A DNA stretch of 49,994 bases from Chthonomonadales bacterium. GTDB taxonomy: Bacteria > Armatimonadota > Chthonomonadetes > Chthonomonadales > Chthonomonadaceae. Under the pieces are notes generated by a model. That model worked only from the letters and a program-made list of their open reading frames with translations. It did not search any database and was not told the DNA's origin. The stretch lies in assembly GCA_038217285.1 (NCBI GenBank), contig JBBQPO010000010.1:1-49994 (forward strand), in the 5' to 3' direction. The translations under genes and the position numbers were made by a program. Below are positions 12,537-31,642 of the stretch, in pieces (the first letter of the stretch is position 1; every line of letters starts with the position of its first letter).

Positions 12537-12566
12537 TTGAATTGTTTATTTAGTATTGGGTATACT
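12537..12566 (+). promoter_or_regulatory. Putative sigma70 promoter of the DUF1559 gene
   Basis: TTGAAT-18 bp-TATACT in an AT-rich patch. Confidence 0.45.
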
Positions 12567-12639
12567 TGTTTTTGTAGTGCCAGCAATGCCTCTCGCCTTT
12601 CGGCCTACACCCATTTCCGAACAGAAAGGAGAGGCTTCT

Positions 12640-13416
12640 ATGCGCTCTCTTTCCTTGCGGGCTTCCGCTCGCTCTGGCTTTACGCTCATCGAGCTGCTTG
12701 TGGTAATCGCTATCATTGCGATCCTGGCAGCGATCCTCTTTCCTGTCTTCGCTCAGGCACGGGAAAAAGCGCGACAGACCGCCTGCCTCAGCAACCTGAA
12801 GCAGGTCGGCCTTGCGGTGCGCATGTATGTGCAGGACTATGACGAAACGCTGCCCCGCACCGAACTCGGCGGGGACGTAGACGCTGCCCACGAATACCTG
12901 TGGGGAGATATGCTCCAGCCCTACACGAAAAACTGGCAGATGCTGCAGTGTCCGAGCGCCAATCAGAAGATCGTCTTCAAGACGGGGATGACCACCTATA
13001 GCGAGCAGTGGACGTACAACTACGGTATCAACGATATTATCGCGGCCGCCTGCTCCTCCGCCGACGATCCTGCCTGCCGCCACATCGGTGTCGCAGGCCA
13101 GGCAGACGCGGCGATCAATACTCCGGCCTCGACTATTCTCATCGCCGACAATCTGCCCTCCGACACCGATACCGGCGACGGCGATAACATAACGCTCGGC
13201 CATGCCCGCCACGAGATCAACTGGCAATGGGGCAAACGCGATGCGACCCGGCTTTCCGTCGGAGGAAAATCGCAGGACGGCTACTCCCGCCACAGCGATG
13301 GATTCGTGTACGTCCTCGCGGACGGTCATTCGAAGTGGCGCAGACGGGAGAAGAGAGCCGATGGAACCTTCGCTTCTGGCACGCGCGACGAGGAGTGGCT
13401 GGCGAACCAGCCCTGA
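12640..13416 (+). CDS. Prepilin-type N-terminal cleavage/methylation protein, DUF1559 / H-X9-DG family
   Basis: [44 protein letters not shown]-terminal [27 protein letters not shown]. Confidence 0.93.
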
Positions 13417-13519
13417 CGACGACACGATCAGGCCAGCGCTTCGCGAAAATGCGGTCGAACAAATGCCGGACTGAGGGATCAGTCCGGCGTTCTGAGCAGC
13501 CCACATTAGGGGTACCGTG

Positions 13520-14761
13520 TCAGGGATGAACCGCTTTCACTGCGGCTTCTATGTCGATGATACCTTTGCCAAGTTTACCCTTGAAAGGCTTGTTGTTGTT
13601 GTCGACCGAGTGAGCAGTCCCGCGAATGCAGTCGGATACCTGAGCGGCGGTAAGCGACGGTGCAACGGAGAGGACAAGCGCGGCTTCGGCGGCGACGAAG
13701 GGCGCGGCGAACGACGTTCCCGACCATGTGGCGTATCCGCCATCCGCGAACGTGCTGCGGATACTGCTTCCGGGTGCGACCACGCGGACAAAGGAGCCGA
13801 AGTTCGAGAAAGAGCTCTTGGTATTGTCCGCATCGACAGCGCCGACGGCCAGGGTTCCTCGCCCGACAGCGGGCGCCAGCGGCTGTTCCACATTGTTGTT
13901 ACCTGCCGCCGCCACGAGCACGATGCCCATCTGCTCCGCTTCGCCGAGCGCATCGTTGAGTGCGCCGGAGTTCGTCGAGCAACTGAAGCTCATATTGATC
14001 ACCCGCGCGCCGTGGGTGGTCGCGTAGTGAATGCCCTGCACCAGCGTAAGCAGGGTTCCGTTGCCATCGCCGTTGAGGACACGGACGGGCATAATCACGG
14101 CGCGGGGCGCAAGGCGGGCGATGATGCCAGCGATCATCGTGCCATGCCCCACTTCGGCGTTCGTCGAGCCGTCCGCCACGTCCCAGGGCAGCGTGTTCGG
14201 CGCGAGAGCGTTATAACCGGCCAGATAGTGGCCCTGAAGGTCCCGGTGCGTGAAGGTCGCACCAGTATCCAGAACGGCGACGATAATGCCGCTGCCCGTC
14301 GCCAGAGGGGTGTTGCCGTGGATCTGCCCCAGCGCATCCACCTGCCCGAGGTTTACCTGCGCGTAACTCAGGGCGTCGATATACGCGGTGGAAGTCTGTG
14401 TTCGGTCGAATGCCAGGTGAAACGGAGCGCCGTCCACTTCCGGGGAGATGATAAAAAGATCCGGCTCGGCATAGAGCACACGCCTGTCTTTACTCAGGCG
14501 GGCGGCAAACTGTGTCTCCGTAACGCCGCGAGGCGTGTTCACACTATACAGACTGGTTCCTGCCACCTGATTCTGTGCCGTCGTTTTATAATCGGCGGCC
14601 AGAACCCGAATATCGACGCCAGAGGCGACTCGCACCAGCACATGCCCGGCAACAATATTGTCCGCCGTCGCGCGTGCGCCGCAGAGGGTGAGCATCACGA
14701 AGGCGACGGCCAGGCGTATCGGCGTCCCCCCGCATTTCGACCATAGATTTGTAATATTCAT
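13520..14761 (-). CDS. Secreted S8 (subtilisin-like) serine protease
   Basis: Catalytic triad motifs VAVLDTG, GHGTMIAG, SGTSFAAP; oxyanion AAAGN; signal peptide and prodomain (VLYAEPD). Confidence 0.95.
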   Translation of the reverse strand: MNITNLWSKCGGTPIRLAVAFVMLTLCGARATADNIVAGHVLVRVASGVDIRVLAADYKTTAQNQVAGTSLYSVNTPRGVTETQFAARLSKDRRVLYAEPDLFIISPEVDGAPFHLAFDRTQTSTAYIDALSYAQVNLGQVDALGQIHGNTPLATGSGIIVAVLDTGATFTHRDLQGHYLAGYNALAPNTLPWDVADGSTNAEVGHGTMIAGIIARLAPRAVIMPVRVLNGDGNGTLLTLVQGIHYATTHGARVINMSFSCSTNSGALNDALGEAEQMGIVLVAAAGNNNVEQPLAPAVGRGTLAVGAVDADNTKSSFSNFGSFVRVVAPGSSIRSTFADGGYATWSGTSFAAPFVAAEAALVLSVAPSLTAAQVSDCIRGTAHSVDNNNKPFKGKLGKGIIDIEAAVKAVHP

Positions 14762-14807
14762 CTCTCTTATTCCTTATTTCACCCGATTTTACCGTGCCCG
14801 ACGCTGG

Positions 14808-17705
14808 TCAGGCAGGCGCAGAAACGTGGCAGCCGCGTTCTCCGATGAGCACGAAAGCAGCCCAGTGATAGGGATGGGGAAATCGACCCCGGACAGCCTG
14901 TTGCGCGCTCCGCAGCGCGGAGGCTTTCGACTGCCCCTGTAAGAGCCTCTCATAAAACTCCTGCATAAGAGCCGCCGTCGCCTCGTCATCGGCGGGCCAC
15001 AGGCTGGCGGCCACCGACCGCGCGCCCGCCGCCAGGAACCCGCGCACCAGCCCGAAAAGCTCGTCACCGGCCTCCGCGAGCGCTACGCCGGTCTGGCAGG
15101 CGGAAAGGGTCGCCAGGTCGCAGGAGAGCCGCAGGGCGTACAGATCGCGGGCGAGCAGCCAGCCGTCCGCCAACTGCAGCCCGGAAAACAGCGGGTTATC
15201 AGCGCGATACAGCGCGTGGGTCGCCAGATGCAGCAGCCGACAGTTACCGGCCTGGCCCTGCACCGCCGCGAGGGTCGCCGCCTCACCCTGCAACACATGC
15301 GCCCGAGGCAGCAGAGGTGCCAACTGCCTCACCTCTTCCGTCACCTGCTCGATGCCGGGCGCGGGCACACTGACAAGCAGCGCCTCGGCGTCGGCCCAGG
15401 AAGCGCCCTCCTCCGAGGTCGTCTGCTGCCTCTGTGCGCCCCGGTGCCAAAGCGCCGCACTGGGAGCGTAGCAGATCTCCCAACGATCCAGCGCGGACTG
15501 TGTGCCGTCGAAGAAAGCATGAAAGGGCAGGCCGTGCAGGACAGCATGCGGCACCACCACAATCTGTTCAGCCGTCAGCAGATCCGCGATGGGGCGCAGG
15601 AGCAGATCGTACAACTGGGTCAGAACGGCCTGCGCGTCGGCCTGAAACCGCTGCGCGTGCCGCTGCGAGAGTTCGCTGCCCCACCCGACCCGCTGCAACT
15701 GGTAGCGCATTCGAAGCGCAGCATGGTCCACCGCTTCCAGGCAGGCGACATTCCAGCGGAAATGCACCTGCTGCGGAGTGACGATCCAGACGCATACGGA
15801 GCCATCGATGATATAGTACACCACTAACGCCTCGTTCGCGTGTAACGGCCTGGCGAGTTCTTGCGTGGCGACGATTTCGGGAAGGGTAAACAGGCCGCGC
15901 GACGCGTAGGGCTCGTCTCCTTCCCGGCGCAACAGATCGGCGTACTCCTGCTCCAGAGCGTTGAGGGAGGCGGCGTCCTCCACACCCGCCACGCCCATGC
16001 GCCTCGCCTCGCTCTCCTCCAGGGTGTTCAGGCTGCGGTAGCCCCGGCTCAGTTCGGCGCGCAGAACCGCCAGCCGCTCCTGCGCCTGCGGCGGCAGAGC
16101 ACCCTTCGCCAGAGGTCGTCCGTCCAGCGCCGCCTGCACGTGCTCTAGCAGCAGGCGAGACTTGGCCCGCTCCACATACTCGAGCGCCTGGGCGATGTCC
16201 TGTGTGCTCCCACGCGCCAGGAGGGCGCCCACCGTCTCTTCGTAGATGGCAAGCTTGTCGCGCAGAAACGAAACGTGCATCTCCTCCGGCGCGATAAGTG
16301 TACGCGCCTGCTCCAACGCCTCCACGCCAGCCCGCAGGTGATGCAGGCCGCGCCCGGCGTTCCCTTTCGCCAGGTAGTGCCGTCCCAGTGCGCGCTCCGC
16401 CTGACACTCCAGCCAGCCGCGCGCGGTCGCCCGCGCCGTTCTCCGCACCGCATGTAGGGACCGCGAGGCGTCGCCGCCCTCCTCGCCTGCCATCTCCGCG
16501 AGCAGCAGCCGCGCCTCCGCCGCCCATCCGCGCAGGCCGCTGCGCGTCAGCGTTCGATCCGCTCGCCGCGCTTCCTGCTGCGCCGCCGCCGTCTGTCCGT
16601 TCCGGCGGAGCAGACGGGCGCGCAGCAGACGCACATGCGCCTGCTGGGTGGCGTTGCCGTTCGTGGCGAAGAGCTGGTCCGCCCGATCCAACCCCGCCAG
16701 GGCCTCTTCGAACTGTTCCTGCGCGATGTGGACGGAGGCGCGCCCTAGCTCGACGCGGGCGCGCTCATAAGCGATCCCCCGTGCTTGCAGCTCGCCAGCG
16801 GCCCGTGCGTAGGCTTCCTGCGCTTCGGGATAGAGGTTCAGTTCCCGGTAGGCTTCGGCCATGTCCGCATCGCACTTGGCCGCGTCCAGTGTCTGACCTC
16901 GCGCCGTAAACTCCTCGCGCGCCCGCTGCAAGGCGGTGATCGCCTGCGCGTAGCGCCCGGAAAGATAGTGAAGAAACCCGACGTTGGCATCGATCTTTGC
17001 GGCGGGCGTCAGCATCGCATGCGCCGCGAAGGTGGCGCGCGCCTGCTCGAAGAGGGCGATCGCCTCGTCCACGCGGTGCAGTTCCATCAGCACGGCGGCC
17101 ACATTGGTCTGCACGGTCGCCTGCGCGACGTCCTCCCCGCTCCGGGTCAGCGTCTCCAGGGCGCGCTCATAACAGGCGAGGGCCAGGGCGTACTGATCGC
17201 GTCGATAGTGGAGCGAGCCGAGATTGACCAGGACTTTGGCGGCGTCCGTCTCCTCGCCATGCGCGCGCAGCTCGGTTTCAAGCCGACGCGCCAGCGCGAT
17301 AGCCTCGTCATAACGCCCCAGCCAGTTCAGCGAGTCGACGCGCCCGATCTGCACCTGCGCCGCCAGACAAGAGTCCCTCACCTGCAGGGCGCAAGTCGCC
17401 GCAGTTTCCAGAACCGTGACGGCGACCGCATGGTCGCCCTGAACACGCAGGGCCTGCCCGACCAGTCGCCATGCCTGCGCCGCGCCCCTGCCATCCCCGC
17501 CCCGTGCGGCGAGGTCCGCGGCAAGCCGCGCCCGCGCCGTAGTCTCGCTCGCATCGGCGCTCAGTCGTTCCCGCGCCGACTGAATCAGATACGGCACGGA
17601 CTCGGGCAGAGCGGCGGCCTGCTGCAGCAGGGATTCTCGATCCGGCGACTCCGGCAGTTCCAGCAGGCGCTCGCACAGCGATGCGGCGGACGGGTCGCCT
17701 CTCAC
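14808..17705 (-). CDS. TPR-CHAT (caspase-like cysteine protease) protein
   Basis: Long TPR array, ERAKSRLL, VVVPHAVLHGLPF, LHLATHA (catalytic His), LSACQTG (catalytic Cys), ASLWPADD, HPYHWAAF. Confidence 0.95.
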   Translation of the reverse strand: MRGDPSAASLCERLLELPESPDRESLLQQAAALPESVPYLIQSARERLSADASETTARARLAADLAARGGDGRGAAQAWRLVGQALRVQGDHAVAVTVLETAATCALQVRDSCLAAQVQIGRVDSLNWLGRYDEAIALARRLETELRAHGEETDAAKVLVNLGSLHYRRDQYALALACYERALETLTRSGEDVAQATVQTNVAAVLMELHRVDEAIALFEQARATFAAHAMLTPAAKIDANVGFLHYLSGRYAQAITALQRAREEFTARGQTLDAAKCDADMAEAYRELNLYPEAQEAYARAAGELQARGIAYERARVELGRASVHIAQEQFEEALAGLDRADQLFATNGNATQQAHVRLLRARLLRRNGQTAAAQQEARRADRTLTRSGLRGWAAEARLLLAEMAGEEGGDASRSLHAVRRTARATARGWLECQAERALGRHYLAKGNAGRGLHHLRAGVEALEQARTLIAPEEMHVSFLRDKLAIYEETVGALLARGSTQDIAQALEYVERAKSRLLLEHVQAALDGRPLAKGALPPQAQERLAVLRAELSRGYRSLNTLEESEARRMGVAGVEDAASLNALEQEYADLLRREGDEPYASRGLFTLPEIVATQELARPLHANEALVVYYIIDGSVCVWIVTPQQVHFRWNVACLEAVDHAALRMRYQLQRVGWGSELSQRHAQRFQADAQAVLTQLYDLLLRPIADLLTAEQIVVVPHAVLHGLPFHAFFDGTQSALDRWEICYAPSAALWHRGAQRQQTTSEEGASWADAEALLVSVPAPGIEQVTEEVRQLAPLLPRAHVLQGEAATLAAVQGQAGNCRLLHLATHALYRADNPLFSGLQLADGWLLARDLYALRLSCDLATLSACQTGVALAEAGDELFGLVRGFLAAGARSVAASLWPADDEATAALMQEFYERLLQGQSKASALRSAQQAVRGRFPHPYHWAAFVLIGERGCHVSAPA

Positions 17706-18322
17706 GGGCCAACCCCTACATCGGGAAGCGTGATCTCCCCATCCGTGAGGCGCAGCGCGATGTCATAAAGACCTCCGGGAATGGAGGGCAGATGGAACTC
17801 CTCGCTTTGCGGCGTGAAAGTGAGACGGCTGCCGCCGCGCTCCGTCAGGACAATCTCATAGGGGATGAGAACGGCATCCCCTTCGCGTGGTGTGACCTGC
17901 CCGATCATGACCCAGTTTCCCTGCCCTGTCGGCTCCTGGAACAGCTCGATGTCGTGCCTGTTCGTCGTGTAAACAAGCTGTACTCCTTCGCGTTTCGCTC
18001 CGCGCGCTCCGGCAAGTGCAGGTAAGGTGTTGCGGCTGTCGAACTGCAGACTGGCCAGCCAGGAGAGCAGCGGGTTCGGAACGACCGTCGGCCGGAACCT
18101 TTCGCGGAAAATAGCGCCTGCGCGCGTCAGCGCCGTTGCAGGAACCTGCACCATGTGCGCCTCGCGAAGCGTCGTCGTAGCGTTCTGTAGCCAGGCCAGG
18201 TTTTGACGACAGTGTACGCAGTCCCGGTCCAGGTGTTCGCGGATCTGCGCCGCCGCGCGCTCGTCCGCACGACCTTCCTGGTAGTCCGCCAGTGTTTCCA
18301 GGGCTATTCCGCAAAGCTTCAT
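17702..18322 (-). CDS. Soluble zf-HC2-like anti-sigma factor candidate with a C-terminal beta-sandwich
   Basis: C...LADYQEG......IREHLDRDCVHC zinc motif; LQFDS...AGARG linker; beta-rich C-terminus (GQV...FHLPSIPGGLYDI); no TM segment; 4-nt overlap with the CHAT start. Confidence 0.75.
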   Translation of the reverse strand: MKLCGIALETLADYQEGRADERAAAQIREHLDRDCVHCRQNLAWLQNATTTLREAHMVQVPATALTRAGAIFRERFRPTVVPNPLLSWLASLQFDSRNTLPALAGARGAKREGVQLVYTTNRHDIELFQEPTGQGNWVMIGQVTPREGDAVLIPYEIVLTERGGSRLTFTPQSEEFHLPSIPGGLYDIALRLTDGEITLPDVGVGP

Positions 18323-18437
18323 TGGGTCACTCTCCTTTTCTACAGACTATGCCGACCGCACCGCTTATTCCCTGTACGGCTTTGCCTCGGCACTTTCCTT
18401 GTTTGTCCGCGCAAGTTGTTGCGGGCGATAGAAGGTA

Positions 18438-18467
18438 GAGACGCCGGAGCCGCGAAAAATACATCCC
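18438..18467 (-). promoter_or_regulatory. Putative ECF promoter upstream of the anti-sigma/CHAT/S8 unit
   Basis: Minus strand GGGATGTATTTTTCGCGGCTCCGGCGTCTC; related motifs at 19723-19754 and 20534-20560. Confidence 0.45.
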
Positions 18468-18593
18468 TGCCGATTAAATTTAAAATTCTTTGAAGTCGCG
18501 CTGCAAACGCAAGAGGCGGCGGACGCAGAAAGGCTCTTCTGTGTCCGTCGCCAGGCTCAGGTTGTTTTGGGCATACCGTGTTAGCGAACTTCT

Positions 18594-19694
18594 TTAGCGC
18601 ACTTCTACCCGCTGGGCCGTCAGGGTCTGGGTGGCAGGGTCGAAGGTTCCCACCGTCTCTACTTTTGCTCCTGCCGTCACCGCACTCAGTCCGCCTGCAT
18701 CGTCGTGTCCGTGCCCATGCCGTTCGAATACGGTCGCCGCCGTGGTTACGACAGTGATGACGCCCCCGGTGGGATGGAAGCCGTTCAGTTCCTTCAGGGT
18801 CAGCGTAAAGGATTTCGCGCCGGTATCCACGCTGCCGACGGTTCCCTCGGCAGTGGCTACGGCAGGCTGGTCTCCGTGGTTGTCGTGCCCGGCCTCTTCC
18901 ACCTTGATGCGATCTGCCGTCACGACCTGGGTCACCGCATCGACACTGCCTTTCACTTCGACCGCCTGGCCGTTGGCCAGCGCAACTGTAGTGCCTTTCT
19001 TATCGCTGAAGATGGAAGTAGATGGCAGGACGAGCACGGAGGTGGTCTGCCCCCCTGTACCCGTCAGGTCGAAGCCCTGCGCAGAAAGGTGGGCGACGGT
19101 GCCTTTCATCTCCGCTTCTTTGCCTTCATGCTGGAAATGCGACTCGTCGGCCCCATGCAGATGCGGTCGCACACGCCCGCTGACCAGTTCGAAGGCCGCC
19201 AGGTCAAAATCGACCACCAGATGCGAAGCTCCTCCCGCTGCCACCTGCGTGGTGGTATTGAAGGTCATGGCGACCTGGCTGCCGCTATGGACGCCGACGC
19301 TGTCATCGATGGGAGCGGTCGTGCCGCTGCCCCCCGCTGCGGGAACCAGGGTTATGTGATCGCCCAGCGTGATGCGTGCCTGCGTGTAGCTGCCTTCCGG
19401 CACGGAGGCGCTGGCAAGCAGTTGTGCGACGTTGGCGAGTGCCGACGCATTGATCACCTTGCCGGCAGTATCCTCGAAGACGGTTCGGAACTGCGTTCCA
19501 TCGGAGATCTCGATCTTGAAGAGGGTGATAAAGACCTGGCTGAAATCCTCATTGAAATCGTCGGTGACAAAAACACCGACACTTGCGCTGCGCACCGCGG
19601 GGTTGGGGTTCGGACTGCTGCTTCCTCCGCCTCCTCCACAGCCTGCCAGAGTTACCACCAGTCCTACCAGGGCGAACCGTGCCGTTCTGTTCAT
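18594..19694 (-). CDS. Lipoprotein with DUF4382-like and DUF5666-like domains
   Basis: Lipobox LAGC + GGGGGSS; VGVFVTD...VPEGSYTQARITL...LVVDFDL (DUF4382-like); two GTV...VEVKG...TA.RI.VE units (DUF5666-like) with His-rich linkers; RBS AAGGAGG. Confidence 0.8.
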   Translation of the reverse strand: MNRTARFALVGLVVTLAGCGGGGGSSSPNPNPAVRSASVGVFVTDDFNEDFSQVFITLFKIEISDGTQFRTVFEDTAGKVINASALANVAQLLASASVPEGSYTQARITLGDHITLVPAAGGSGTTAPIDDSVGVHSGSQVAMTFNTTTQVAAGGASHLVVDFDLAAFELVSGRVRPHLHGADESHFQHEGKEAEMKGTVAHLSAQGFDLTGTGGQTTSVLVLPSTSIFSDKKGTTVALANGQAVEVKGSVDAVTQVVTADRIKVEEAGHDNHGDQPAVATAEGTVGSVDTGAKSFTLTLKELNGFHPTGGVITVVTTAATVFERHGHGHDDAGGLSAVTAGAKVETVGTFDPATQTLTAQRVEVR

Positions 19695-19722
19695 AATATG
19701 TTGCCTCCTTAAGCAATATAGG

Positions 19723-19754
19723 GAGTCATAGCGTACCCCTAAAAATACGTTCCC
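19723..19754 (-). promoter_or_regulatory. Putative ECF promoter upstream of the lipoprotein gene
   Basis: Minus strand GGGAACGTATTTTTAGGGGTACGCTATGACTC. Confidence 0.45.
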
Positions 19755-19865
19755 GTGAAAAATCTTCAAAAAGCCTGGCGTTGAGAGAACCAAAGGCCCC
19801 TAGAAAGGAGGCCCTGGCCGACAGGCGTCACCTGCAGATGTCGAAAGGAAACAGAGGCGACCGGA

Positions 19866-20492
19866 TCAATAGTCAAGCTGCTGAAGGATCTTGCGGAGGC
19901 TGCTTAAACAGCGGGCACGGGTGGGTCCGATGCTGCCGACCGGCAGAGAGAGCTTCTCGGCGAGCTCTTGATAACTGAAGGGACTGTCGGTCGCATAGAG
20001 ATTCAGAAGGAGTTCGCGACAGCGATCCGGTAGGCGCATGACGGCTTCGCGCATCAGTTGCTGCTCTTCCAACGCCATGACCCCCGCCTCCGGGTCTCCT
20101 GCTCCCTGCTGGGGATGCAGGCTTACCGCGTTTTCCATCTCCCAGGCGCCGTCACCCAGTTCTGAGGCGAGGCTGACATTCCGCCTTCGCGCCACCCGCC
20201 ATACCTCGCGCTTGGTGGTAGAGATAAGCCAACTGGAAAGCTTGGTCGTATCCCGCACACCCGCCAGGTGATTAAACAGAACGAGGCAGACGTCCTGGAA
20301 TATATCCTCGGTATCCGCGTGCGAAACCCCCATGCGCAGGCATACGGAAAAGACCAGGGCTGCATAGCGGTCGATAAGCGCATCCCAGGCGGCTTTCTCG
20401 CCCGCCAGACAGGCCGAAATCAGATCCTGGTCCGAGGCGAGGCGATAAGACGAGGCTGTCGGCTCCTTTTTTTTGAAGGGCACATAGGGCAT
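19866..20492 (-). CDS. ECF RNA polymerase sigma factor
   Basis: SDQDLISACLAGEKAAWDALIDRY, DTEDIFQDV, SWLISTTKRE (region 2); LPDRCRELL...SYQELAEKLSLPVGSIGPTRARCL (region 4). Confidence 0.93.
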   Translation of the reverse strand: MPYVPFKKKEPTASSYRLASDQDLISACLAGEKAAWDALIDRYAALVFSVCLRMGVSHADTEDIFQDVCLVLFNHLAGVRDTTKLSSWLISTTKREVWRVARRRNVSLASELGDGAWEMENAVSLHPQQGAGDPEAGVMALEEQQLMREAVMRLPDRCRELLLNLYATDSPFSYQELAEKLSLPVGSIGPTRARCLSSLRKILQQLDY

Positions 20493-20669
20493 ACACAGAT
20501 ATTACCTTCGCCACAGCCTCTCTCCTGTATTCGCGGACGCTGGAGCCCTAAAATAGTTTCTCCACGAACGCTCCCACGACGTAAGAGGGTCGCTACAGAG
20601 ATAGGGGTTGGAAACGGAAGCGTCCTCGGATCTCAACGAATTCCAATCCCTACTTGCATGGACGTGTGC

Positions 20670-21578
20670 TTAGCGCGGCCCGACCGCGCTCCACCCCGGT
20701 ACGGGATTACTAGATGTTAGCCCGCCGCCTTGGAAAGTGACTCCATTCATGTACCAGACGACGAGGTGTCCGGTCTGCGAATCCTGGAACACAAAGTCGG
20801 GATTGTTGTCTCCGTTCACATCCGTCATTCCTACGATTTTGTAGTTCGCGCCGGGAACGTCGGGGAAGAGGCTTGCGCCGGTGACCGTCTGGCCTTTCAG
20901 GGTCCAGTAGGCGATCTGACTGCTTTGCGTGTTCTGGAACACAACGTCTCGACGCCCTGTGCCGGTAATGTCGGTTACCCCGACCACGTTCCAGCCTGTT
21001 ACTGGCGTTGCGTTGACCAGCCCACCACCAAGCAGCGTGGTCCCGTTCAATAGCCACACAGCGACCTCATGCGTCTGGGCATTCTGAAAGATCAGATCGA
21101 CATGCCCGTCCGCATTAAAGTCTCCCGCACCCGCCACCTGCCAGTTCGCTCCAGGAGAATCAGGTAGGACTTCGCTCCCGATGATATTGGCCCCATTCAT
21201 ATACCAGACAGCGATCCTGCCGGAGAGGGCGTTTTGAAAGATCAGATCGGTCTGTCCATCCGCGTTCATATCCGCTGTGGCAACCAGCTTCCAGTTCGAC
21301 GCGGGCGTGTAGTTTACAATCTGACCGCCGACCACTGTCTGACCGTTCATAGCCCAGAAAGCGATCTGATTGCTCTGCGCGTTCTGAAAGAAGATAGAGG
21401 AAGCCGGTGGAGCAACCGCGGGCGGCCCCGCTCCAGCCGCCAGCAGCGCCTTATAGACGTTGATCCTACCCGCACCTACGGCGATCAACCTGGTGAGGTA
21501 GGTGCTGTAACTGTCCACATTATTCAGGATCAAGTTGTAGACCTGCGTGTTGGTCAACGAGGGGTTGTGCGCAAGGAT
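20670..21578 (-). pseudogene. 5'-truncated S8 protease (C-terminal helix only) fused to an FG-GAP repeat module
   Basis: Frame starts abruptly after a TAA with ILAHNPSLTNTQVYNLI...GAGRINVYKAL (subtilase C-terminal end); no catalytic motifs or signal peptide; then about five FG-GAP units (D.N.DG..DLIFQ) ending VGPR. Confidence 0.8.
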
Positions 21579-22272: not shown

Positions 22273-22731
22273 ATGAAAATCAGACATTCTGGGTGGACTG
22301 CCCTTCTGGGCGCGAGCGCTTTGCTGCTCGTCGTAGGCGTCAAGCCCGCCTACGCGCATGATGACGATGGTCACGATCAGATCCATAACAGGTTGGACCA
22401 GCATCACGATGACCTGCATAACCACCTGGATCAGAAGCACGACACCGCCCACGACCGCCTGGACCAGAAGCACCAGCGTGACCATGCTCGCCTGGAGCGG
22501 GAGCATCAGCGCTGGCACCAGCACAACGATAACCGAGACTGGGATAACGCCGACTATCAGGCCGCCCATGATCGTCTGCATGACCATCAGGATCAAAAGC
22601 ACGATCGTCAGCACCAGCAGCTCGACCGGCAGCACGACCGCGCCCATCAGCAAATCGACAGAGAGCACCAGCGTGCTCACACCTATATCGAAAACGATCA
22701 TCGCCGCTGGCATGAGGGCGATGACAACTAG
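22273..22731 (+). CDS. Secreted histidine-rich protein with 11-residue repeats
   Basis: RBS GAGGAG; signal peptide ending PAYA; two blocks of (HxxxHxxL/IDxx)4-HxRWH. Confidence 0.88.
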   Translation: MKIRHSGWTALLGASALLLVVGVKPAYAHDDDGHDQIHNRLDQHHDDLHNHLDQKHDTAHDRLDQKHQRDHARLEREHQRWHQHNDNRDWDNADYQAAHDRLHDHQDQKHDRQHQQLDRQHDRAHQQIDREHQRAHTYIENDHRRWHEGDDN

Positions 22732-22783
22732 ACCGAGTGCGACAATTCGCATCGGAGGCACAGACGCCTCAGAAAGACCTAAC

Positions 22784-23059
22784 ATGAAAACCTGGATACT
22801 GGCTGCGGCGGCTTTCGCCACACTTTCGAGTATGGCCCTGGCCGCGCCGCCACATAAACATAAGCATACGATGGAGAAGGCGGCTCTGATCTGCCCGGTG
22901 ACAGGCGAGAAGATCGCTTCGACGAAGGCAGCCGTCGGCCATAGCGTCTACAAAGGCAAAACCTACTACTTCTGCTGCGCCGGATGCAAGCCGCGCTTCG
23001 ACAAAGACCCTGCCACCTTCGTCAAGCACTCGAAGGCAGGTAAGTTCGAGAAGATGTAG
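22784..23059 (+). CDS. Secreted YHS/TRASH domain protein
   Basis: Signal peptide ending ALA; CPVTG...YKGKTYYFCCAGCKPRFDKDP. Confidence 0.9.
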   Translation: MKTWILAAAAFATLSSMALAAPPHKHKHTMEKAALICPVTGEKIASTKAAVGHSVYKGKTYYFCCAGCKPRFDKDPATFVKHSKAGKFEKM

Positions 23060-23309: not shown

Positions 23310-24551
23310 ATGAAGCGAACTCTGTTCATCAGTACCCTGTGTCTCGTCATCGCTATCTTTGTCGGTCCTCGACTCCTGGGCCAGAACCAGGCGTTGCCGG
23401 CCGATGCGGTTCTGCCGCACCTCGATCAGAGCCAGTACATCGGCTCGCAGAAGTGCGCCGAGTGCCACAAGACCTACTACGAGAGCTGGAAAGAGAGCGC
23501 GCACAATAAGATGATCCGGCCCGCCATCCTCAACGGTCCGGGTAAAACCGTCGTGGCCGATTTCAGCAAGGCCGATCCCAATCGTCCCTTCGAACTCAAG
23601 GATGTGAAATGGGTCATCGGGCATCGCTGGAAGCAGCGTTTCATCGGCGTCGTCAGTGGAGAAGAGGTCGTTTTCCCCGGCCAGTGGAGCATTAAGGAGC
23701 AGAAGTGGCAGCCGTATACGGGCAAGGCCGACTGGTGGTATCCGCAGCATCCGGACTGGAAGACACGTTCCAATTTCAAGCTCTGCGCCGGCTGCCATAG
23801 CACTGGTGTTGACATCGGCAAGGGAACCTGGACCGAGCAGAACATCACCTGCGAAAGCTGCCACGGCCCCGGCAAAGTCCATGCAGAAAAGCCGACTAGC
23901 GCCAACATCGTCAATCCGGCGCGCCTGAGTACGGAGCGCTCGATGGAGGTCTGTCTCGCCTGCCATCAGGCCGGCAGACCGGCAGGCAACGAATACGCCT
24001 GGGCGGTCGGCTATCAGCCCGGAAAGAAGCTCTCCGACTACTGGCATGGGTTTGAGCCGGAGCCGGGCAAGCAGACCTCCGAGTTCTGGGGCAACGGCAC
24101 GGCCCATAAGAACAGGATTCAGGGCAACACCTTCTCGCACAGCGTTATGCATGCAAGCGGAATCCAGTGCTCGAACTGCCACGATTCGCACGGGTCACGG
24201 AACCTCTCGATGACCGTCAAATCGGCCTCGACGAATGCGCTCTGCCTCTCCTGTCACGGACCGGGCAAGCAGGTCGGTCCGAACTTCACCACCCTTTCCG
24301 AACATACCCACCACGCCGCGACAAGCACGGGCAGTCAGTGTATCGGCTGCCATATGCCCAAGACCGGGGAGAACTCGGTCGGAGCAGAATCGAGAGACCA
24401 CACGTTCAACTTCGTCTCTCCTGCCGTTTCCATGAGCAAACCGGACGCGACCGGCAAGACCGTTCCCAATAGCTGCAACCTCTGCCATGCGGACAAAACA
24501 GCGGACTGGGCGCTCAAACAGACGAAAGAGTGGTATCCCAAACTCAAGTGA
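23310..24551 (+). CDS. Secreted octaheme c-type cytochrome (c554/paired-CXXCH-like family)
   Basis: Eight CxxCH: CAECH, CAGCH, CESCH, CLACH, CSNCH, CLSCH, CIGCH, CNLCH; signal peptide. Confidence 0.92.
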   Translation: MKRTLFISTLCLVIAIFVGPRLLGQNQALPADAVLPHLDQSQYIGSQKCAECHKTYYESWKESAHNKMIRPAILNGPGKTVVADFSKADPNRPFELKDVKWVIGHRWKQRFIGVVSGEEVVFPGQWSIKEQKWQPYTGKADWWYPQHPDWKTRSNFKLCAGCHSTGVDIGKGTWTEQNITCESCHGPGKVHAEKPTSANIVNPARLSTERSMEVCLACHQAGRPAGNEYAWAVGYQPGKKLSDYWHGFEPEPGKQTSEFWGNGTAHKNRIQGNTFSHSVMHASGIQCSNCHDSHGSRNLSMTVKSASTNALCLSCHGPGKQVGPNFTTLSEHTHHAATSTGSQCIGCHMPKTGENSVGAESRDHTFNFVSPAVSMSKPDATGKTVPNSCNLCHADKTADWALKQTKEWYPKLK

Positions 24552-31528: not shown

Positions 31529-31642
31529 CTCTTATCTTGCAGACAGATCGACTCTGCCCGGATTTAGCACCTGCCCGCGCCATAGCACGGGTGGTTGTTG
31601 TGGTGTCAACGGGCCGGATCCCTCAACCACTCTCGATAAGAA
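31529..31642 (-). ncRNA. SAM-I (S-box) riboswitch
   Basis: Minus strand TCTTATCGAGAGTGGTTGAGGGATCCGGCCCGTTGACACCACAACAACC...GGTGCTAAATCC...AAGATAAGA matches SAM-I P1, P2 kink-turn and pseudoknot signatures; lies upstream of metK. Confidence 0.93.

Follow-up and report, generated by a model that had tools for sequence, protein, structure and literature searches.

Whether a caspase-fold CHAT protease may gate the release of a sigma factor outside of CRISPR systems is the question raised by a five-gene locus in a Chthonomonadales bacterium (Armatimonadota; Chthonomonadaceae; assembly GCA_038217285.1). The window analysed here, the whole stretch of 49,994 nucleotides (nt) at positions 1 to 49,994 of contig JBBQPO010000010.1, contains at 13520-20492 five open reading frames (ORFs) on the minus strand, coding for an extracytoplasmic function (ECF)-type sigma factor, a DUF4382/DUF5666 lipoprotein, a soluble anti-sigma-like protein (Asf, encoded by the gene here called asf), a TPR-CHAT protein and an S8 subtilase. 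ORF, Pfam and catalytic motif analyses bear out the five co-oriented genes, their domains and their intact catalytic residues as described in an initial annotation of the sequence, as well as the overlap of the asf stop and the CHAT start, which share 4 nt (GTGA at 17702-17705). Four of the genes (sigma, asf, TPR-CHAT and S8) form a real and strongly conserved cassette that occurs in several phyla. Sequence, structure models and analogy suggest that the cassette could constitute a self-contained, CRISPR-independent switch in which CHAT cuts Asf and frees the sigma factor, a reading that is given slightly less than an even chance.

A search for asf in 400 other genomes sampled from the phylum identified 45 places with near-full-length matches in 39 genomes, with the weaker matches in this sample covering only the generic anti-sigma N-terminus. 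Forty of these places and a paralogue in the genome studied here make up a set of 41 related Armatimonadota loci. CHAT adjoins asf in 40 of the 41, the sole miss being a contig of 1.2 kb, and a sigma gene is located beside asf in 37; two of the misses (L040 and L016) fall at contig ends, and the other two are L053 and L061. Of the 41 loci, 34 contain S8, with six of the seven misses at contig ends. A second set, partly overlapping the first, was anchored on CHAT and comprises the best 80 loci retrieved with a CHAT alignment as query from contigs of one genome per species. By title, these best 80 loci belong to the Chloroflexota (44), Armatimonadota (20), Acidobacteriota (7), Verrucomicrobiia (1) and Eiseniibacteriota (1), with a further seven unlabelled. 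Within them asf lies beside CHAT in 71; sigma occurs in 63, S8 in 59, and 49 have the full set of four genes. Five of the nine loci lacking asf have CHAT at a contig edge. Both sets show strong co-conservation, which the initial annotation had proposed to test across Armatimonadota, Acidobacteriota and Chloroflexota. The recurrence of these genes together in 41 Armatimonadota loci and in further phyla places the association far beyond chance. The order of the genes is shuffled, being sigma-CHAT-asf-S8 in the Acidobacteriota and S8-asf-CHAT-sigma in L043, with a divergent sigma gene in L052, L055 and L057, and membership persists throughout this variation, as is typical of a functional unit.

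A second, diverged sigma/asf/CHAT/S8 cassette, with no lipoprotein gene, is present in this genome on contig C40 (L007: 6172-11524). The identities to the window proteins are 42% for the sigma, 32% for Asf and 37% for CHAT, and the S8 gene is truncated where the contig ends; contig C123 begins (1-558) with an S8 fragment of 50% identity. The plasmid collection held no asf match, and none of the 48 records matched there by CHAT reached 80% query coverage. The one actinobacterial CHAT match that was examined, in Nonomuraea (L158), is not accompanied by a cassette.

The asf gene (17702..18322, minus strand; 206 aa) is predicted, from sequence profiles and a structure model, to code for a soluble anti-sigma protein with a zinc-type anti-sigma (ZAS)-like N-terminal domain and a family-specific C-terminal module. 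The window protein matches no Pfam family at E<=0.01 and shows a faint match to the NCBIfam 'antisigma' model (E 0.0029). Its zinc-type motif, H30-x4-C35-x2-C38, is one residue longer than the canonical H-x3-C-x2-C, and this is the ligand spacing in most members of a 122-member family alignment, with the acidobacterial and Chloroflexota members having the H-x3-C-x2-C spacing. H30, C35, C38 and R107 are each conserved in 120 of the 122 members, D95 in 112 and C4 in 78. The first 80 positions of the family profile match RsiW (E 5.1e-4), ChrR (1.4e-3), RslA (6e-3) and DdvA (8rlz_A; 0.01), so that the N-terminal domain, which is helical and by these profile matches similar to solved anti-sigma domains, appears to be of the ZAS/class I anti-sigma type. 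The zinc-finger protein of the initial annotation is hence anti-sigma-like, with zf-HC2 recognised in 30 of the 122 members (the window protein not among them), and it lacks a membrane segment as had been claimed, with no 15-residue stretch reaching a mean hydrophobicity of 2.0.

The C-terminal half of Asf is of a different kind. Positions 135-189 of the family profile match the CarboxypepD_reg-like repeats of NOMO (1.8e-10), and Pfam CarboxypepD_reg is found in 28 of the 122 members. In the AlphaFold2 model of the window protein (mean predicted local distance difference test score, pLDDT, of 90.8) helices at 8-75 are followed by a linker, a strand (86-95), a loop (96-113) and a beta-sandwich (114-204), and R107 is located in the loop, where pLDDT is low (block mean 62). 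Foldseek returned no match to this model in the PDB at E<=1e-3. Weak similarities to RsiW (Z 6.0, root mean square deviation (rmsd) 7.5, 70 residues aligned) and MucA (Z 5.9, rmsd 2.6, 53 aligned) were observed with VIA-align, and the sandwich has a common Ig-like fold only (best Z 8.1). A word-based search gave 31 clusters of Asf-like proteins of ~206 aa, and the Asf profile retrieved from 1.84 billion representatives 118 clusters at E<=1e-30, 1600 at <=1e-10 and 4014 at <=1e-3, of which nearly all of the best 150 are ~200 aa in length. The Protein Atlas yielded only unnamed clusters from Armatimonadota and Chloroflexota, and one cluster with zf-HC2 in 47% of its members. The search for longer, fused forms gave only three generic CarboxypepD_reg repeat proteins and so argues, if weakly, against fusions. 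Tandem double H-x3-C-x2-C motifs are present in the Chloroflexota Asf proteins of L108, L114, L115, L126, L128 and L133, as well as in those of L138, L146, L150, L152, L155 and L157, and represent a predicted duplication of the zinc-type anti-sigma domain.

With such a domain, Asf may be an ordinary soluble ZAS redox or thiol switch, as in RsrA and ChrR, where oxidation or loss of zinc would release the sigma factor and CHAT and S8 would be regulon products only. The conservation of the zinc ligands and, to a lesser extent, of C4, the match of the family profile to ZAS anti-sigmas and the candidate promoter upstream of asf-CHAT-S8 (see below), which makes these genes likely sigma targets, are all consistent with this, and soluble ZAS anti-sigmas controlled by conformational change are among those listed in the relevant section of PMC8999054. 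Lineages devoid of the zinc ligands nevertheless retain the cassette and the C-terminal domain of Asf, with the loop Arg kept in four of the five such variants examined (L080, L081, L088 and L106) and replaced by Q in the fifth (L090); L080 belongs to the cultured species Chthonomonas calidirosea. Furthermore, this asf family with its beta-sandwich and Arg loop adjoins CHAT in 40 of the 41 loci, by tight or overlapping junctions that would be needless for a mere output gene, and a CHAT-Asf complex receives weak support from structure prediction (0.60 versus 0.00 in controls). A redox switch independent of the protease is thus considered unlikely.

The TPR-CHAT gene (14808..17705, minus strand; 965 aa) codes for a protein with N-terminal TPRs (TPR_12, 70.4 bits) and a CHAT domain (Pfam CHAT, 192.3 bits against a cut-off of 24), in which the dyad residues H830 and C870 are invariant in all 17 orthologues compared. 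Residues 713-919 match Csx29 structures (E 2e-5), and the TPR region shows a weak match to the structure of a Rap phosphatase (6t3h, E 0.0044). Neither signal nor membrane segments were found in CHAT, Asf or the sigma factor across their orthologues, the hydrophobic stretches in CHAT being internal strands only. The asf-CHAT junction measures at most 20 nt or overlaps in 36 of the 40 loci, and is exactly -4 in ten. Complex prediction for CHAT residues 90-965 and Asf residues 83-206 gave a score in the 'weak support' class, with a median of 0.60 (0.58, 0.61 and 0.60) and 0.00 for the best of three controls; the runs share at least 55% of contacts and the partner pLDDT is at least 77. The pass mark applied is attained in 58 of the 80 solved complexes and in two of 110 mismatched pairs, and at scores of 0.60 or below by only seven of the 80 solved complexes along with both of the passing mismatches.

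A contact between the two proteins could also occur if Asf were a securin-like pseudosubstrate or inhibitor of CHAT, the true substrates of which would be other cell proteins, for example in stress or abortive infection, with sigma release as a side branch. The nearly invariant Arg in a flexible loop and the weakly supported complex fit this reading, as do the restraint of separase, which cuts after Arg, by securin (PMC11506125) and the activation of a broad-range caspase by a type III-B CHAT protease (bioRxiv 10.1101/2023.06.23.546230), as these two sources describe them. The locus, however, has no defence context. No CRISPR-type direct repeats or CRISPR array were found in the window, the PADLOC defence-system models matched nothing except a generic subtilase, in agreement with the CRISPR independence proposed in the initial annotation, and the neighbouring genes code for a regulator, an epimerase, an FG-GAP protein and cytochromes. 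The co-conservation of the sigma gene in 37 of the 41 loci moreover indicates that transcription is the main output, and a securin-like role is considered quite improbable.

The ECF-type sigma gene (19866..20492, minus strand; 208 aa) scores above the cut-off of the ECF superfamily model (TIGR02937, 72.1 versus 42.9 bits, residues 35-203) and of Pfam Sigma70_r2 (39.4 bits versus 24). A Pfam region-4 match was not obtained for this protein at E<=0.01, and the closest named model, which is SigW-like (E 9e-18), remains under its cut-off. None of the residues in the linker (89-153) is invariant among 15 orthologues. Two cysteines of region 4, C158 and C195, are invariant across these orthologues, and C28 is nearly so. 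Direct action of CHAT, or of the proteases jointly, on the sigma factor has been proposed for ECF54 in PMC8999054 on the basis of conserved carboxypeptidase, subtilase and CHAT neighbours. The 'carboxypeptidase' neighbour, however, carries an anti-sigma domain in the cassette studied here, the sigma linker lacks a conserved residue where the Asf loop has a nearly invariant Arg, and an exported S8 subtilase cannot meet a cytoplasmic sigma factor. Direct proteolysis of the sigma is accordingly regarded as very improbable. The R107 loop of Asf is the best candidate for a cleavage site, because it is predicted to be flexible, is almost invariant and is retained in four of the five zinc-ligand-less variants; it is further preferred because the sigma linker offers no conserved residue and separase cuts after Arg (PMC11506125, in the part concerned with this protease).

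In the Chloroflexota loci (L108-L157), a conserved protein of ~235 aa is encoded 5' of asf (e.g. L118:4098-4823) and is kept in 33 loci. It has no Pfam match. Its structure model (pLDDT 89.4) comprises two helical domains, and the best 50 Foldseek rows are all sigma factors (top E 3.7e-3, probability 0.99). Alignment of the Armatimonadota sigma profile with this protein by hhalign is weak (probability 17%, E 1.4e-3), and a profile search against PDB sequences gave no sigma factor, so that only the fold search indicated sigma factors. On the basis of the model, the protein looks like a divergent sigma family that is missed by standard models.

A bipartite motif, TGTAT(T/C)TTT followed ~17 nt on by CTCTA, is located 5' of asf in many loci, and its consensus (TGTATTT-N17-CTCTA) precedes the asf-CHAT-S8 and lipoprotein genes and not the sigma gene. 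In the window, this candidate ECF-type promoter (TGTATTTTT-N-CTCTA; 18436..18463, minus strand) lies 141 nt 5' of the asf start and, with 25.9 bits in the position weight matrix (PWM), is the top site of the whole 6.2-Mb genome, in which 14 sites of at least 21 bits were counted against three to five in shuffles. Sites of at least 16 bits are situated 20-300 nt 5' of asf in 23 of 42 loci, of the lipoprotein gene in four and of S8 in three, the asf count being partly circular as 18 of the 23 sites trained the matrix. Across the 1.17 Mb of loci scanned there are 61 sites at this threshold, 31 of which are 20-300 nt 5' of cassette genes. S8 has its own site in L045 and L046, where a long gap parts it from CHAT, and the sites preceding the lipoprotein genes of L045, L046, L073 and L074 score 20.6-27.6 bits. 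The copy 5' of the lipoprotein gene in the window (19716..19749, minus strand) is weak (PWM 14.6 bits); most of its score comes from the -35 half (13.0), the -10 half contributing little (1.6). A scan of 13200-20800 with the sigma-70 consensus gave no housekeeping-type promoter.

The other genes preceded by the motif have products with signal-like N-termini or surface-type repeats, and eight of the ten products scanned belong to no Pfam family. The simplest reading of these sites is that the sigma factor, itself transcribed from another promoter, would drive asf-CHAT-S8 together with surface and exported proteins. Strong copies of the motif precede genes at C150:1316-1855, C91:18236-18718, C246:8050-8406 and C1:20156-21625 of this genome, whose products have signal-like N-termini and no Pfam family; the N-termini of the C91 and C246 products resemble each other, and the starts of the C150, C91 and C246 products are rich in Gly and Ser. 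These four genes are possible further members of the regulon, judging from their upstream sequences. A variant motif (GCATTTTT ... CTTATATA) is common to the paralogous cassette (L007) and L042, in both of which it occurs 5' of asf, and may point to the paralogous sigma having a promoter specificity of its own.

The S8 subtilase gene (13520..14761, minus strand; 413 aa) codes for a Peptidase_S8 protein (152.2 bits, cut-off 21.8) with the Asp, His and Ser motifs of the catalytic triad at D165, H206 and S350. Its N-terminal prodomain is Fervidolysin_NPro-like (20.4 bits, cut-off 21). Assignment as a mycosin, the protease of type VII secretion, was rejected, the TIGR03921 score of 176.3 bits being below the cut-off of 278.75. 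The N-terminus is signal-like, and signal peptides or lipoboxes are present in the orthologues of both S8 and the lipoprotein. The lipoprotein gene (18594..19694, minus strand; mechanical ORF to 19793) has a probable ATG start at 19694 that is preceded by AAGGAGG, a ribosome-binding site, and codes for a protein with a lipobox (LAGC) and with DUF4382 (53.7 bits) and DUF5666 (37.2 bits) matches that are both over the cut-off. A homologue occurs in only six of the 41 related loci, at varying positions, and the lipoprotein is an accessory that lies outside the four-gene core. The S8 subtilase belongs to the core, and its export and the candidate promoter that it shares suggest an output and not a partner acting within the cytoplasm.

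Secreted subtilisins mature the Phr peptides of Bacillus. By analogy, the exported S8 could mature an extracellular precursor, from which a re-imported peptide would bind the TPR region of CHAT in the manner of RRNPP systems, making the subtilase part of the input. Second only to asf in constancy among the partners, the S8 gene occurs in 34 of the 41 loci and its product is always exported, and the TPR region has its weak Rap phosphatase match. The TPRs are, however, generic, this match is weak, and no gene for a precursor peptide was seen in the cassette; a peptide-signal loop is considered most improbable.

In the favoured reading, in which CHAT acts on Asf, the N-terminal ZAS-like domain of Asf would hold the ECF sigma factor in the resting state. 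Asf and TPR-CHAT would be co-made from their overlapping genes and may form a complex through the beta-sandwich and loop of Asf, which the complex prediction weakly supports. The TPR region would read a cytoplasmic signal, upon which H830 and C870 would cut the flexible loop, most likely after R107; the anti-sigma fragment would then be lost and the sigma freed. Free sigma would transcribe from the TGTATTT-N17-CTCTA promoters, a motif that is observed and whose recognition by this sigma is inferred. Transcription of asf-CHAT-S8 would provide both feedback and export of the subtilase, with the lipoprotein and other surface-protein genes also driven, and the subtilase and lipoprotein would be outputs outside of the cytoplasm.

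Several observations weigh against this reading. All 37 sigma genes lack the candidate motif on their 5' side, an unusual situation for ECF sigmas; the motif is assigned to the cassette sigma by inference, and most of the asf sites belong to the training set of the matrix. With the promoter preceding asf-CHAT-S8, CHAT could be a mere regulon member, and with its conserved His and Cys ligands Asf could be a conventional ZAS protein that senses redox state and works without a protease. The window Asf itself carries the H-x4-C-x2-C spacing and has no Pfam match, and L090 has Q where the loop Arg is expected. There is no sigma gene within 8 kb in L053 and L061, S8 is truly absent from L054, and no asf is detectable in L102, L122, L154 and L156 despite flanks of at least 2.2 kb. 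Finally, predictions in the 'weak support' class of the CHAT-Asf score are, according to the tool, wrong in most cases, except where the interaction was already probable a priori.

Downstream of the S8 stop, a terminator-like hairpin (13465..13488, minus strand) has a stem of ten pairs, seven of them G-C, followed by ATTTGTT; it is a consensus match only, the whole scan having given five sites against a shuffle mean of 4.8. The first codons of a 318-aa ORF without a Pfam family (12550-13506, minus strand) overlap this hairpin, and either the real start of this ORF lies further downstream or there is no gene. One flank of the cassette holds genes for an FG-GAP repeat protein (20670-21557, minus strand), a YHS-domain protein (22358-23059, plus strand) and a multihaem cytochrome c (23310-24551, plus strand), and the opposite flank genes for a GntR/periplasmic-binding-type regulator and an NAD-dependent epimerase; nothing ties these neighbours to the cassette. 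An S-adenosylmethionine (SAM) riboswitch (RF00162) is located at 31529-31642 (minus strand; 71.6 bits, gathering score 44.4).

Caspase-like CHAT proteases are very common in bacteria. To our knowledge, a substrate is known only for those bacterial CHATs that are linked to CRISPR. The cassette offers a defined pair for this protease class, namely the C870 dyad of CHAT and the R107 loop of Asf, with the promoter at 18436-18463 as read-out and the secreted subtilase as output. If the proposed cleavage takes place, bacterial CHATs would gain a defined natural substrate and cleavage site outside of CRISPR, and sigma release gated by a caspase-fold protease would represent a general signalling design rather than a CRISPR accessory.

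Huang et al. 2015 is said to be the source of the ECF54-type context. As described in PMC8999054, the neighbours of ECF54 sigmas carry carboxypeptidase, subtilase and CHAT domains, and proteolytic control has been proposed, so that the link between ECF sigmas, CHAT and subtilases to which the initial annotation referred is real. The idea of a protease-gated sigma/anti-sigma switch is thus less new than first thought, its composition having already been described computationally. Judged by gene context and the published description, the cassette resembles ECF54 in combining an ECF sigma with CHAT, subtilase and carboxypeptidase-type domains, the last of these corresponding to the CarboxypepD_reg-like domain that makes up the C-terminal half of Asf. 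It differs in that it derives from a member of the Chthonomonadaceae (Armatimonadota), whereas ECF54 is placed in the Actinobacteria with no putative anti-sigma in the pertinent part of Casas-Pastor et al. 2021 (PMC7826278), the main text of which does not contain the term 'CHAT', and in that a ZAS-like anti-sigma domain is present. In this cassette, the 'carboxypeptidase-like' neighbour of the published context is predicted from its sequence to be a hidden ZAS-type anti-sigma, which corrects the description of that context as anti-sigma-free. What is new here comprises this hidden anti-sigma, its nearly invariant loop Arg, the candidate promoter and the divergent sigma of the Chloroflexota. 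Papers on DdvA, Craspase and the type III-B system, together with the ECF review, were all that the literature search on the cassette itself yielded.

The cassette falls outside the DdvS/DdvA, Craspase and CalpL/T/S systems, because the score for Csx29 is far under the cut-off, the window has neither a CRISPR array nor a defence-system model and the proteins are separate and without membrane segments. It resembles DdvS/DdvA of Myxococcus xanthus (as outlined in PMC11506125 and PMC6061681) in its ECF sigma and in a zinc-type anti-sigma domain linked to a TPR-CHAT with a His-Cys dyad. In DdvA, however, the anti-sigma domain and a periplasmic TPR-CHAT share a single membrane-spanning polypeptide, which controls a CBASS-CRISPR island, whereas in the cassette the anti-sigma and CHAT are two soluble proteins of the cytoplasm, and there are no neighbouring defence genes. 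A DdvA-type single-polypeptide anti-sigma was accordingly rejected for the cassette, given the separate genes and the lack of a hydrophobic segment in Asf. In the CalpL-CalpT-CalpS system, a soluble protease likewise cuts a soluble anti-sigma and frees a sigma factor, which is ECF-like (bioRxiv 10.1101/2023.06.23.546230 and 10.1101/2024.05.08.593097, in the parts that describe it), but that protease is Lon-type (SAVED-Lon), activated by cyclic oligoadenylate and CRISPR-associated, whereas the protease of the cassette is a CHAT of clan CD in which the TPRs would act as sensor. With the soluble ZAS proteins RsrA, ChrR and RshA and the cytoplasmic domain of RsiW, as these are portrayed in the sources, Asf shares an N-terminal helical domain, His and Cys ligands and a gene beside that of an ECF sigma; it differs from them in its family-specific C-terminal beta-sandwich and Arg loop, in the coupling to a protease gene and in the H-x4-C-x2-C spacing of most members.

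In type III-E Craspase, Csx29 cleaves Csx30 and relieves the inhibition of CASP-sigma (PMC10028731). The likeness lies in a cytoplasmic TPR-CHAT that cuts a soluble inhibitor of an ECF-like sigma, a cleavage which is only proposed for the cassette. There is neither Cas7-11 nor a CRISPR array in the window, the candidate substrate is a ZAS/Ig-like protein and not Csx30, and the trigger of Craspase is target RNA. Assignment of the cassette CHAT as Csx29 was rejected, as it scores 33.8 bits with NF041237, where the cut-off is 300, and as the window contains neither CRISPR-type repeats nor, apart from a generic subtilase, a match to a PADLOC system model. Stand-alone TPR-CHATs may, more broadly, act as regulated 'site-1' proteases in a cytoplasmic sigma switch that is widespread, occurring in five phyla or more, and cut a dedicated soluble anti-sigma after an invariant loop Arg. 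This tentative generalisation, considered possible rather than probable, would make the cassette a CRISPR-free counterpart of Craspase/Csx30/CASP-sigma, with an ECF-type promoter of its own and a secreted subtilase as effector.

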